Origin: Escherichia phage BF17
Sequence record: MW822008.1
DNA length: 64,000 bases
Direction: 5' to 3' (one strand)
Shown here: positions 3,832 to 55,495 of the stretch, piece after piece
How positions within the stretch are numbered: the first letter of the stretch is position 1
Layout of the letters: every line of letters begins with the position of its first letter
The notes under the pieces: model-generated
Seen by the model: only the letters and a program-made list of their open reading frames with translations
The model's database searches: none
Told to the model about the DNA's origin: nothing
Translations under genes and position numbers: made by a program

Positions 3832-3881
3832 ATTATGTATATAAATACATTAACTAATATCTAATTTATAAGGGATATATA

Positions 3882-51633: not shown

Positions 51634-52562
51634 TGAAACAACTACAAGAACTATATCAAAGAATTCTGGATCAAGGTGTCGAAAGCGTTGATCGTACTGG
51701 TGTTGGCACTATCAAGCTAATCGGACAACAAATGCGTTTTGACCTAAAAGAAGGTTTCCCAGCAGTAACTACTAAACGTTTAGCTTGGAAAGCAATGACT
51801 TCAGAATTGTTATGGTTTATTGAAGGTTCTCACGATGAGCGTCGTCTGTGTGAAATTTTACACGGGACACGTGATGTAGAAAAGAAAACAATTTGGACAG
51901 ACAACTACCTTAATCAAGGTGTAAGCCTTGGGTATTCTGATGGTGAGCTTGGCCCAGTTTATGGTAAACAATGGCGTGAATGGGAAGATTATAAATTCAG
52001 TTCCAGTACTGAAGAAATTCAAGAACTAAAAGATAAAGGGTATAAAGTTATTGATTATACTGGTTCACATGGTGTTATTATGCGTCGTGTAACTGACCAG
52101 CTAAAACAAGTTATTGAAGGTATCAATACTGATCCATACGGTCGTCGTCACATTCTAAGTGCATGGAACGTTGGTGAGCTTGATGCTATGACTTTGCCAC
52201 CCTGTCATAGCTTTGTGCAGTTTTGTGTTGTACAGGGTAAACTAAGTTGTATTCTTCATCAACGTAGTGCTGATCTATTCCTTGGTGTGCCATTTAATAT
52301 TAGTAGTTACTCACTACTAACTCATATGATTGCACAAATTACAGGGTTAGATGTTGGTGAATTTATTTGGAATGGTGGCGACTGCCATATCTATCAAAAC
52401 CATATTGAACAAGTAAAAGAGCAACTCCAACGTGAACCACGTACATTACCAGAATTATGGTTAGATCCTACTATTACTGATATTGAAGATTTCACTATGG
52501 ATTCTTTCAAATTAGTTAATTACGATCCAATGCCATCAATCAAAGCACCAATGGCTGTATAA
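51633..52562 (+). CDS. thyA: thymidylate synthase
   Basis: DRTGVGT..G.QMRFDL..GFP.VTTKR, LLWF, GPVYGKQWR, PCHSF.QF, QRSADLFLGVPFNISSY (Asn conserved, indicating dUMP substrate) as in E. coli ThyA; about 35-aa insertion after WREW. Confidence 0.9.
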   Translation: MKQLQELYQRILDQGVESVDRTGVGTIKLIGQQMRFDLKEGFPAVTTKRLAWKAMTSELLWFIEGSHDERRLCEILHGTRDVEKKTIWTDNYLNQGVSLGYSDGELGPVYGKQWREWEDYKFSSSTEEIQELKDKGYKVIDYTGSHGVIMRRVTDQLKQVIEGINTDPYGRRHILSAWNVGELDAMTLPPCHSFVQFCVVQGKLSCILHQRSADLFLGVPFNISSYSLLTHMIAQITGLDVGEFIWNGGDCHIYQNHIEQVKEQLQREPRTLPELWLDPTITDIEDFTMDSFKLVNYDPMPSIKAPMAV

Positions 52563-52569
52563 AAGAAAA

Positions 52570-52593
52570 GGGAGACATAAGTCTCCCTTTTTT
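52570..52593. terminator. bidirectional intrinsic terminator between convergent + and - blocks
   Basis: GGGAGAC-ataa-GTCTCCC flanked by A-run upstream and T-run downstream. Confidence 0.7.
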
Positions 52594-52594
52594 A

Positions 52595-54559
52595 TTATCT
52601 TAATGTAACCAGTGTACGTCCGGCAAATCTCACATCAGGAGTTGCAGGGATACTGAACACTACGCTTGTTCCATTGAATGTAACACTATCAACTTCAACA
52701 CGAGTGTAAACACCAGTACTTACGAGTTCTTGAATTTCAGCAGTTACTATGTTACTAGCAGTTACTGTTAATGTGTAATATGAGCCGTTTAAAACCCACG
52801 CTGACGCAACAAACGGGTCAGTACGAACAGAACCAGAACCAATTGGAACCCATTGTCCTTGAACCTTCTGCATCGATGTACGTTCGGTATTTGAGTATGC
52901 AATCATACCATCAACACCAACCGAGTTATCAATTGTAGCCAGTACTGGTAATTGAATACCATATCGGTTGAAACGAGTACGAATAACACCGTTATCATAT
53001 ATACTTACATCAGCATAACTTCCCATAGTGAAACGTAAGTCTGCACCAAGTAGTTTTATATCACTTTGGTTAGTAGTACTTTCTAATGTGAATACACCAT
53101 TCTCTAGTAAGTTTATGTTTTTGAATTTGTTATTAGTTCCATTGAAATTAGTATTTGCATTATAAGTACTAACACCATTAACTGTAATAGTGTCACCAGT
53201 AGTGTCACCTAGTGTTGTATTACCTTTAACAACTAAATTCCCGCTGGCATTGATGTTACCTGCGTCTAAATCACCAGTTAGTGATGTTGAACCATCTACA
53301 ATAATATTTCCATGAAAATGTGATTCACCATTTTTAAATTCAACTTGAACTTTATTCATTGAACTCAAAGAAATAATATTACTACTTGCACTTATCCCTA
53401 CGTTTGTGTTTGATGCATTATCAAAACGTATTACTGGCGTAGCTGCTGGTGTAGCGGTAGTTTGGAATAATGTTAGTGTTCCATTATTAATTCGAACACG
53501 TTCTGTGCCAGCAGTGCTGAACCCAATTGCGTCATCGGATGGATGAAATATACCAGTATTAGCATCGGACCACTTAGTTGGGTCATTACCTGGGTTATTC
53601 GTTGGGTCAAACGGATTATTATTAAATGTCAATGCTGGTGCTGCTGCACTGCCATACACCACCCCAAAACGCCCAGAGCCGTCTGTTCCATCATTATACA
53701 TGGAATCACCAGTTCTACGTAAACACTCAATCACAACGTTATCTATGGATGTTTGAACGGTCCCTGCGTTTGTTCTAAATTGACGATGATTTGCAATCAT
53801 TACAGTATTGTCATATAATACTGAAGCAGCGGAAATGCTTGTTCTTGACTGACGAAGACGTATATTCTTATCTTCAGTTATAATAATCCAATCGCCATCT
53901 GAAAGTGCAGTTTGGTTCATTGGAACACCAGATGCAAATGGTTTGGTCAAGTCAGTATCTGTTGCTAAATTTTCAAGGCCATCATGACCAGTACTAGGAA
54001 TAGATGCAGTAATAATTCTAGCAAAAGCGTATGTTACTAGTTTAGCACCAGATATATTTGGATTAGAGTCAACATAATATAAAATTTCAATCCAATTACC
54101 TTGTCCAGTTGGATTTGTAGGTGTAAATGTAACAGGACTTGTTTGTGGATTATTTGCTTCATAATGTGCTTGTGCGGCATCCATTATACCACGCACGACA
54201 TAATAATCACCATTAAGCGATGGTGATGGTGCTGGTAGTGGAGTTTGTGCTAAAGGTGGATCAATATCATCTGGGATGGGATTATATGTACCAACAAATT
54301 GTAAACCACTAGTTACTGAATCTGGTAATTGGGAAGTAAGAAGTTTACCGTTTGCATCTAGGTTTGCAAAACGTCTATATGCCATTGAACCATCTTCAAA
54401 GTCTAGTACACCTTCAAATGCTTTCCATCCTTTATTGTATCTAATCATCCCTGATCTAACCACATCAGCGGTTTCTTTAGTCGGTGCTTTAGGTAATTCT
54501 AGAAATGCCTGACTATCTATAATTACACCACCATCACCTCTAATTCGATTTATACTCAT
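52595..54559 (-). CDS. tail fibre protein (distal, putative receptor-binding)
   Basis: 654 aa, Thr/Asn/Gly/Ser-rich; GAGGAAA RBS; last gene of the - strand fibre block. Confidence 0.5.
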   Translation of the reverse strand: MSINRIRGDGGVIIDSQAFLELPKAPTKETADVVRSGMIRYNKGWKAFEGVLDFEDGSMAYRRFANLDANGKLLTSQLPDSVTSGLQFVGTYNPIPDDIDPPLAQTPLPAPSPSLNGDYYVVRGIMDAAQAHYEANNPQTSPVTFTPTNPTGQGNWIEILYYVDSNPNISGAKLVTYAFARIITASIPSTGHDGLENLATDTDLTKPFASGVPMNQTALSDGDWIIITEDKNIRLRQSRTSISAASVLYDNTVMIANHRQFRTNAGTVQTSIDNVVIECLRRTGDSMYNDGTDGSGRFGVVYGSAAAPALTFNNNPFDPTNNPGNDPTKWSDANTGIFHPSDDAIGFSTAGTERVRINNGTLTLFQTTATPAATPVIRFDNASNTNVGISASSNIISLSSMNKVQVEFKNGESHFHGNIIVDGSTSLTGDLDAGNINASGNLVVKGNTTLGDTTGDTITVNGVSTYNANTNFNGTNNKFKNINLLENGVFTLESTTNQSDIKLLGADLRFTMGSYADVSIYDNGVIRTRFNRYGIQLPVLATIDNSVGVDGMIAYSNTERTSMQKVQGQWVPIGSGSVRTDPFVASAWVLNGSYYTLTVTASNIVTAEIQELVSTGVYTRVEVDSVTFNGTSVVFSIPATPDVRFAGRTLVTLR

Positions 54560-54605
54560 TTAAATATTTCCTCAGAATAGATTATATATTAAGTATTTAT
54601 TTTAG

Positions 54606-54637
54606 ATAAAAGAAAAGGCCAACCATAGTTGACCTTT
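54606..54637 (-). terminator. intrinsic terminator (- strand)
   Basis: Hairpin AAAGGTCAAC-tatg-GTTGGCCTTT followed by TTTCTTTT on the - strand. Confidence 0.5.
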
Positions 54638-54649
54638 AAAAAATATAAA

Positions 54650-55429
54650 TTAACGAGTACGCTCAGGAATATCAATACCTTCATATACCCATACAGCCGC
54701 CTGTTGTGCTTTATAAATTGCATCTTCATCAGCATCAGGAACTGCATCAATGTCAGCACATTGCTTATCACACTCTGCAAATAGGGATTCAACCATAGCA
54801 AATGCTTCAGTGTATAGTTGAGTCATTTCAGCAGCAGATAGTTTTACAATTGCGTCATCAAGGAAAATAGAAACACTATCAGCACCTGAAGTTACTTGAG
54901 TGTAATAGTTAAGAAGCATTTGACGACCAGCTAGATCAGTACTATAACGATGACCGTTAAACATATAACCAGCATTAATACGGTCACTACGAGATGATAC
55001 TGTGCGTGCTTTCAGATCAGATTTAACTGATGCAATGTCCATATCAACATAATTATAAGTTTTCAGTACTGTTAACTCTTTATATTCACCTTCTGCTTCT
55101 TCTAAGAATGTGATGACTGGTTGATTACTATCTAGTAGTTTAATATATTCCAAATTCTCATTAATTGCGTTCACGTTACCAACATTCTTATATTCCAACC
55201 ACCAGAAACCCTCTTCTTTACGAACAGCGTTATTAGGTTCAATTTCAGAACCATCTTTACTTGAAATACCATAAAGTGCACGAATATCGCTGTACAAATA
55301 ACGATATGTTTGTTCATCATCTGGAGTTGCTCCAGGGCGTTCTTTTAAACCCTTAACACCAACTGGGTTGGAGATGATGTTACCCAATTCATAATTTTCT
55401 TTAGAACTACCTTTTACATATGTAAACAT
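54650..55429 (-). CDS. hypothetical fibre-associated protein (259 aa)
   Basis: Sits between two fibre genes on the - strand; GAGGTAG RBS; globular composition. Confidence 0.45.
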   Translation of the reverse strand: MFTYVKGSSKENYELGNIISNPVGVKGLKERPGATPDDEQTYRYLYSDIRALYGISSKDGSEIEPNNAVRKEEGFWWLEYKNVGNVNAINENLEYIKLLDSNQPVITFLEEAEGEYKELTVLKTYNYVDMDIASVKSDLKARTVSSRSDRINAGYMFNGHRYSTDLAGRQMLLNYYTQVTSGADSVSIFLDDAIVKLSAAEMTQLYTEAFAMVESLFAECDKQCADIDAVPDADEDAIYKAQQAAVWVYEGIDIPERTR

Positions 55430-55452
55430 ATAACTACCTCACTTGTTAAGAT

Positions 55453-55486
55453 GGTGTCACCATAATTGATGACACCGTTTTTTTTA
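55453..55486 (+). terminator. hairpin plus T-run oriented for the + strand inside the - strand fibre block
   Basis: GGTGTCA-(10 nt)-TGACACC followed by GTTTTTTTTTT on the + strand. Confidence 0.4.
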
Positions 55487-55495
55487 TTTTAATTA

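Follow-up and report, generated by a model that had tools for sequence, protein, structure and literature searches.

Stem-loops located between cistrons set differential mRNA stability within operons, as described for the puf operon of Rhodobacter, the REP element between malE and malF of Escherichia coli and the intergenic hairpins of phage T4. Stabilising stem-loops of the ompA type act at the 5’ terminus of the messenger and are defined by an RNA 5’ end lying within a few bases of the stem. Intrinsic terminators oriented antisense to genes have been mapped by ONT-cappable-seq in Pseudomonas phages (PMC10914365). The hairpin analysed here belongs to known kinds of element, whether it is read as part of the messenger or as a terminator facing the genes. 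With the puf, REP and T4 elements it shares a stable G+C-rich hairpin between two cistrons, the absence of a U tract and a conserved structure; it differs from them in being single-copy rather than repeated and in having a loop, AUUA, which is outside the class of unusually stable tetraloops. Like the ompA-type stem-loops, it is positioned a few bases upstream of a leader and a Shine-Dalgarno sequence and follows an A/U-only stretch where cleavage or initiation is possible, but there is no late-promoter box nearby and a 5’ end at the stem is hypothetical. Its likeness to the terminators of the Pseudomonas phages (PMC10914365) lies in a hairpin with a direct T-run, set opposite to both neighbouring genes within a structural block; here, however, no plus-strand transcript is predictable, the strong tail is present in one subclade and the stem is weaker on the plus strand.

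The window, i.e. the whole 64,000-nucleotide stretch of Escherichia phage BF17 that was analysed, derives from an Asteriusvirus (121Q-like jumbo coliphage). Over 2 kb around the hairpin, the identity to Escherichia phage Turkey3 is 99.4%; it is 95-98% for eight further coliphages and about 79% for the 121Q/PBECO4 group. All these relatives are Asteriusvirus jumbo phages of about 350 kb. A plus-strand gene block reaches position 52562, its final two genes encoding a DprA-like protein and thymidylate synthase. From 52595 on, the genes lie on the minus strand; their products are a protein of 654 aa, a virion structural protein of 259 aa, a tail fibre protein of 1906 aa and a further fibre protein. 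The 66-nt gap that contains the hairpin is bounded by the stop codon of the 1906-aa gene (55496-55498) and by the 259-aa gene, whose start codon is at 55427-55429. For every intergenic region in the window, we computed the d’Aubenton-Carafa discriminant (d), values above 0 being considered positive. The features of the locus are as follows.

52564-52593 (plus-strand score taken at 52570-52587), either strand: bidirectional terminator where the thymidylate synthase operon and the fibre block meet, d = +37.0 on the plus and +29.5 on the minus strand.
54614-54637, minus strand: co-directional intrinsic terminator after the 259-aa gene, d = +7.8, putative end of a two-gene transcription unit.
54650-55429, minus strand: gene for the 259-aa virion structural protein (PHROG virion structural protein), downstream cistron.
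55430-55452, minus strand: leader of the 259-aa gene, AUCUUAACAAGUGAGGUAGUUAU, with a GAGG Shine-Dalgarno sequence at 55437-55440.
55453-55476, either strand: stem-loop with invariant 7-nt arms (55453-55459 and 55470-55476), identified from sequence, folding and alignment.
55477-55490, plus strand: T tail made of G (55477), T8 (55478-55485), A (55486) and T4 (55487-55490), an A-rich spacer (A8) on the gene strand.
55486-55491, minus strand: -10-like hexamer TAAAAT, 4-9 nt upstream of the hairpin, TATAAT in 11 of 13 relatives, with a weak -35 match, TGCACA, at 17 nt.
55496-61216, minus strand: gene for the 1906-aa long tail fibre proximal subunit (PHROG tail fibre), upstream cistron, ending in a double stop, TAATAA.
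61277-61284, minus strand: late-promoter-like box CTAAATAT upstream of the fibre gene, putative start of the two-gene unit.
61323-61347, minus strand: co-directional intrinsic terminator closing the preceding fibre gene, d = +21.4.

An earlier note had reported this hairpin, its T tail on the plus strand and two minus-strand flanking genes, all of which are real in the sequence and at the position given. On the plus strand, the element reads GGTGTCA (55453-55459), the 10 nt CCATAATTGA and TGACACC (55470-55476). The tail, described in that note as about 10 T, is indeed T-rich (12 T in 13 positions) but is not a single run: a G is found between stem and tract, and an A separates T8 from T4. The note had also placed the hairpin just upstream of the ribosome-binding site of the 259-aa gene on the minus strand, without a T-tail, and this holds: the GAGG sequence is 12 nt downstream of the hairpin, and the sequence following the stem is AUCUUAACAAGUGAGG, where a U tract is absent. 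In the plus-strand RNA, the stem has 7 perfect pairs, a C.A mismatch and 2 further pairs (-10.8 kcal/mol, or -13.1 kcal/mol once the basal A-U and U.G pairs into the tail are included), while in the minus-strand RNA it has 10 contiguous pairs including one U.G, closed by the AUUA loop (-14.0 kcal/mol). Folding z-scores are -2.99 and -3.54 for the plus and minus strands, respectively. Shuffles give an expectation of 0.00 for the arm pattern, which the window contains once, and the element is present in a single copy per genome. The 8-nt loop limit of the built-in terminator scan is the sole reason why that scan missed it.

Scored as a terminator, the hairpin gives opposite results on the two strands. 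On the plus strand, a T-rich tract within 2 nt of the stem and a modest G+C-rich stem, the sequence features of an intrinsic terminator, result in d = +30.8 (rank 4 of about 18 in the window), as good as the phage’s own terminators. On the gene strand, d is -40.5 (-37.7 to -42.3 over all seven variants scored) with AUCUUAAC as the tail, and the hairpin cannot terminate gene-strand transcription. Sixteen same-strand gaps in the window have a co-directional terminator (d > 0) and one convergent gap has a bidirectional one; the only other reverse scores above 0 come from weaker partners of co-directional terminators (+4.9 and +11.8). A further 50 kb of Turkey3 contains four co-directional terminators, two convergent ones and one weak reverse candidate (d = +9.8) inside an 838-nt unannotated gap. 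The hairpin is therefore a real outlier, the sole site in the 114 kb surveyed, bar that one weak candidate, with a tail directed only against genes. It is not a bidirectional terminator either, having a terminator-grade tail on one side only and co-directional flanking genes. It resembles the co-directional terminators of this phage (about 20 in 114 kb) in the A-rich spacer after the stop codon, in the G+C-rich stem of 7-10 bp and in the G.U pairs on the transcribed strand; yet those terminators have d values of +5.0 to +40.3, and the hairpin alone has no gene-strand U tract. The UE-S1 database record annotates the homologous site as a gene-opposed terminator, and in phage G17 no terminator is called by ARNold at the homologous site. 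The 838-nt gap of Turkey3 (196059-196896, segment 40060-40897) is between two minus-strand genes, with its plus-strand terminator-like hairpin at segment 40619-40634, and may hold an unannotated small plus-strand gene or RNA. Elsewhere in Turkey3, UUCG tetraloops with a C-G closing pair cap two co-directional terminators (segment 24884-24901 and 28449-28464); extra-stable hairpins of this type were first described in T4 intergenic regions.

A G.U pair in the RNA of one strand corresponds to a C.A mismatch in that of the other, so that wobble pairs show which of the two RNAs matters. We calibrated this logic on 19 co-directional terminators of this phage: G.U pairs were found on the transcribed strand in nine cases and on the opposite strand in none, and the transcribed strand was the more stable one in 12, equally stable in 4 and less stable in 3 (by at most 0.6 kcal/mol). 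In the hairpin, the gene strand has a G.U at pair 8 in the window clade, at pair 9 in the 121Q clade and at pair 10 in UE-S1. On the plus strand there is no G.U within the stem, where C.A mismatches occur in three lineages; the basal U.G pair of the window is present on that strand only. The gene-strand hairpin is more stable than its plus-strand counterpart by 3.2, 3.9, 2.3 and 0.6 kcal/mol. In the upper stem, pair 10 shows one compensatory change, A-T to C-G, and the arms are 10 or 11 nt apart depending on the clade. The shift in spacing fits an RNA structure better than a DNA operator. The G.U polarity amounts to three events (P = 0.125 under neutrality), and a mutational push towards T on the sense strand could contribute to it, since 4-fold sites on that strand are T-rich (T 0.50 vs A 0.39). 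Polarised substitution counts at 4-fold sites, considered as a test of mutational bias, were dropped because events were too few.

Comparison of relatives separates an invariant core from a variable tail. In an alignment of 13 genomes, none of the 14 arm bases varies, against an identity of 76-82% between clades for the flanking genes. Of the 26 bases that make up the leader and ATG, one position differs in this alignment, and 25 are the same as in 121Q. Variation among the 13 genomes is otherwise found in the upper stem, in the loop, which has 4-7 nt, and in the gene-strand A-run. The latter is A6, A7, A8 or A9 in genomes 96-99% identical at the hairpin locus, and its counterpart is AATAAA in 121Q, AAAA in ph0011 and AATAAAA in UE-S1. 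On the plus strand, every lineage with the hairpin retains at least 3 T directly after the stem; the long T-run is confined to the window’s subclade, with a length of 6-9, and 121Q-type genomes have TTTATT or TTTTATT in its place. Plus-strand d values are correspondingly spread: +35.9 in Turkey3, +30.8 in the window, +25.5 in EC.P1 and +10.8 in CMSTMSU, and, in other lineages, +16.2 in ph0011, +14.3 in UE-S1 and -1.8 in the 121Q clade. We therefore asked how much of the tail is spacer composition. Spacers between stop codons and terminator hairpins in this phage have a pooled A/(A+T) of 0.60; that of the hairpin spacer is 0.62-0.65 in the 121Q, UE-S1 and ph0011 versions and 0.78 in the window. 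Under spacer composition, the tail scores of 121Q, UE-S1 and ph0011 have chance probabilities of P = 0.11-0.16, while that of the window is better than predicted (P about 0.016-0.03). These compositions and P values point to a conserved design made of the usual A-rich spacer and a hairpin minus the U tract, the strong T-run being a recent, length-unstable addition of one subclade. The comparison weakens the antisense terminator proposed in the earlier note: the long T-run is confined to that subclade, and in the other lineages the tail is no richer than an ordinary A-rich spacer would make it.

At the same intergenic position, unrelated hairpins with a gene-strand T tail are found in Turkey5 and JNE01 (d = +9.6 and +16.0, respectively), in A4 (d = -7.9) and in Erwinia phage Kaldavass (d = +36.2). 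The hairpin thus occupies a spot where sister phages bear true co-directional terminators, and hairpins in the gap between the fibre and 259-aa genes, where present, would normally serve the gene strand. In XaC1, in Hallingskeid and before the first Kaldavass paralogue, the fibre gene and its partner are just 12-17 nt apart with no hairpin between them, and because of these short gaps co-transcription of the two genes looks ancestral. Searches of IMG/VR and of a metagenome collection with a single 259-aa protein query and a six-sequence profile returned solely 121Q-type copies with an identical intergenic sequence. A scan of IMG/VR with the arm pattern was uninformative, as it matched more than 80 unrelated contigs, the 14-base palindromic pattern being too common. 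Two further observations were made in these relatives. Turkey5 (segment about 1415-1443) and JNE01 (about 1413-1441) have, in the gap between fibre gene and 259-aa homologue, terminator hairpins that are exact reverse complements of each other, with flanks unchanged except for the length of the C-run before the hairpin. The difference between the two phages is a small inversion between the arms, i.e. a hairpin flip, and it turns a G.U pair into a C.A mismatch at a cost of 4.1 kcal/mol. In Kaldavass (segment 684-2157), two successive genes annotated as virion structural protein are located behind the fibre gene, of which tblastn matched the second only. The first is 12 nt past the fibre gene, the second is behind an 82-nt gap with a strong terminator and an ATAAATA box, and both are possibly paralogues of the 259-aa protein.

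The promoters of the region bear on which transcripts cross the hairpin. A late-promoter-like motif, (C/A)TAAATA(A/T), precedes many structural genes of this phage, the fibre gene included. It occurs 14 times in sense and once in antisense orientation in the window (10 and 0 for CTAAATA) and is similar to a motif, ATAAATA, that has been proposed for phages CBB and GAP32 (PMC5259590). The gap at 55430-55495 contains no copy of this box and no gene-strand terminator, and the 259-aa gene is without such a motif. An ATAAATA is present at 54594-54600, beyond the 54614-54637 terminator. The simplest reading of this layout is one late transcript that would span the fibre and 259-aa genes and include the hairpin. 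The full T4 late consensus, TATAAATA, was found once in the window (3840-3847) against 8.3 expected, and the motif counts fit a T4-like late promoter that is avoided elsewhere. In the head genes of Turkey3, the late box is often preceded by TTTCAGTAC (segment about 29390, 46400, 47965 and 49150). Elsewhere in the window, a terminator hairpin (16752-16775) followed by T8 (to 16783) comes directly after a perfect TTGACA-17-TATAAT promoter (16722-16750). The predicted start of this promoter is inside the 5’ arm of the hairpin, such that its own transcripts would escape the terminator which stops upstream transcription; comparable layouts of box and hairpin are present at about 28325 and 32368. 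A search of the literature returned no Asteriusvirus transcriptome.

A second tail-less hairpin was found elsewhere in the window, in the leader of a small gene (about 32122-32363, roughly 80 aa).

32066-32124, plus strand: late-promoter-like box CCCTAAATAAT, 5 nt, tail-less hairpin (32080-32097) and TAACAATTTGGGAG-N8-ATG, from the sequence layout.

This hairpin is on the gene strand, without a tail, and its leader is similar to that of the 259-aa gene (TAACAA, then the Shine-Dalgarno sequence). The layout is kept in 121Q, RaK2, Serratia phage BF, CBB and GAP32, spanning four genera, and the inner hairpin shows two compensatory pairs. Thus, this phage group does keep hairpins without a U tract in mRNA leaders. 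In 5 of 6 sequences, RNAalifold also predicts pairing between the promoter box (CCUAAAU) and the Shine-Dalgarno region (AUUUGGG). The layout resembles that of T4 lysozyme and soc, where the ribosome-binding site is masked in read-through RNA but accessible in RNA begun at the late promoter. TAACAA itself was not retained as a shared leader motif: it occurs 44 times in sense and 32 times in antisense orientation in the window, mostly in coding sequence, and is unenriched.

We next weighed what the hairpin could be. A gene-strand intercistronic stem-loop in a read-through fibre operon has, in our judgement, about an even chance of being the correct reading, and a hairpin acting in the gene-strand RNA, the variant with its own promoter included, is better supported than a dedicated antisense terminator. 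The structure is stable, conserved and kept on the gene strand, with neither a terminator nor a late box between the genes; the G.U polarity, the conserved leader and the positional homologues in relatives all back the suggestion of the earlier note that the hairpin acts in the minus-strand mRNA. The particular role named there, a 5’ stabiliser, would call for an RNA 5’ end at the hairpin, where the late-promoter motif is absent and the one sigma-70-like match is weak. The main alternative, also put forward in that note, is a genuine one-way plus-strand intrinsic terminator, which would let the late fibre transcript pass and stop polymerases running against the fibre genes; we consider it possible, though doubtful. 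Such polymerases might come from read-through of the converging thymidylate synthase operon or from stray antisense starts, and their termination would spare the 5.7-kb fibre gene collisions and antisense RNA. The terminator signature is real: d = +30.8 ranks fourth, and the site is the only gene-opposed one in 64 kb, with at most one weak candidate (+9.8) in a further 50 kb. A hairpin with a T tail is the usual form of terminator in this phage, the UE-S1 record carries the same call, and among the experimentally mapped terminators of six Pseudomonas phages 9% lie antisense to genes (PMC10914365). What is missing is a substrate. Scans for tRNAs and short plus-strand ORFs found none ending at the hairpin, and Rfam gave no match with E ≤ 1 overlapping it (52000-62000 searched). 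There is no late box on the plus strand within the minus-strand block, and sigma-70-like matches are not enriched (33 vs 40.7 in shuffles). The 10/12 sigma-70-like match in antisense orientation at 53791-53819 was not taken as evidence of a promoter, being in coding sequence and kept equally in relatives with and without the plus-strand tail. The nearest plus-strand operon ends at 52562, behind the d = +37.0 terminator at the convergence point; 2.9 kb ahead of the hairpin, this terminator is the first that read-through would meet. (Sub-threshold Rfam sraA matches on both strands at 52510-52655, which score 42.5 and 34.3 bits where the gathering score is 56, are most likely just the hairpin of this bidirectional terminator.) Moreover, d falls to -1.8 in the 121Q clade, to which most known genomes belong, G17 has no ARNold call, the T-run is polymorphic in length, and C.A mismatches weaken the plus-strand stem in three lineages. 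That the palindrome is selected on both strands, as a one-way valve which would protect the sense RNA and terminate antisense polymerases, is in our view rather unlikely; a possible source in that case is an antisense RNA of about 0.9 kb over the 259-aa gene, starting near a plus-strand TAAATA at 54561.

The remaining explanations are less probable still. With a promoter of its own within the gap, the 259-aa gene would have transcripts starting at the hairpin or a few bases from it, and the hairpin would be the 5’-terminal stabiliser of a monocistronic mRNA. TATAAT is found 4-9 nt upstream in 11 of 13 aligned genomes, with TTGcac or TGCACA 17-18 nt further up, and the order is the same at the 32080 locus, where a clear late box is followed after 5 nt by the hairpin, TAACAA and the Shine-Dalgarno sequence. 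Yet a TAAATA late box is absent from the gap before this late structural gene, the -35 match is weak, in coding sequence and shifted out of spacing by a 3-nt insertion in UE-S1, the consensus hexamer is lost in the window and Turkey3, and the TAAAAT/TGCACA match is without statistical support in a region where promoter-like matches are not above shuffles; we regard this promoter as unlikely. A decaying relic, i.e. an ancestral co-directional or bidirectional terminator which lost its U tract and is functionless on either strand, would account for the working-looking co-directional terminators at the same spot in sister lineages, for an A-run that behaves as a drifting homopolymer and for the structural lability of gap hairpins seen in the Turkey5/JNE01 flip. 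It is nevertheless quite improbable, given 14 arm bases unchanged across clades whose neighbouring genes are 18-24% divergent (chance about 0.04 per single pairwise comparison) and an upper-stem pairing that survives one compensatory and three wobble changes. A DNA operator for a dimeric regulator would suit a perfect 7-bp inverted repeat of invariant sequence, but is scarcely credible with a half-site spacing of 10 bp in some clades and 11 bp in others, a spacer that is itself self-complementary, a single copy in the 164 kb examined and only 3, 3 and 2 isolated half-sites. Three further ideas were discarded. Pairing of the last codons of the fibre gene with the Shine-Dalgarno region, as a translational switch, is contradicted by natural variants, which break rather than compensate the pairs. 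Inversion of the whole terminator module, as an origin of the reversed tail, is unsupported: the window has no more than a 4-bp TTAA palindrome flanking the module, and 121Q lacks even that. Finally, RNase III processing requires around two helical turns (about 20 bp) of duplex RNA, and the stem has at most 10 bp.

Returning to the intercistronic stem-loop, the late minus-strand messenger running from the fibre gene into the 259-aa gene would include the hairpin, whose 5’ side appears to be built like the phage’s standard terminator, with an A-rich spacer and a G+C-rich stem, minus the U tract. Since the U tract is absent, RNA polymerase would read through and the stem-loop would remain inside the bicistronic mRNA. 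There, it may serve as a decay or processing barrier separating the two cistrons: once the A/U-only spacer is cut, it would protect the 259-aa cistron on its 5’ side; alternatively, or additionally, it may keep exonucleases off the 3’ side of the fibre cistron. The plus-strand T-run would then be the mirror image of the A-rich spacer, lengthened in this subclade. With such a tail, the site in the window’s subclade probably also stops a polymerase travelling the wrong way, for example in vitro, which we view as a side effect and not as the selected function.

For annotation, these results imply that terminator predictors, and at least one GenBank record, will place a terminator here on the strand opposite to the genes. 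Such calls can be checked by the polarity of G.U against C.A in the stem, calibrated on the genome’s own terminators, together with the background composition of the spacer. Beyond annotation, the significance of the hairpin is very small. However, if it tunes the ratio of the long fibre to the 259-aa protein, it would provide a handle on fibre stoichiometry in Asteriusvirus phages, which are being collected for therapy and biocontrol.
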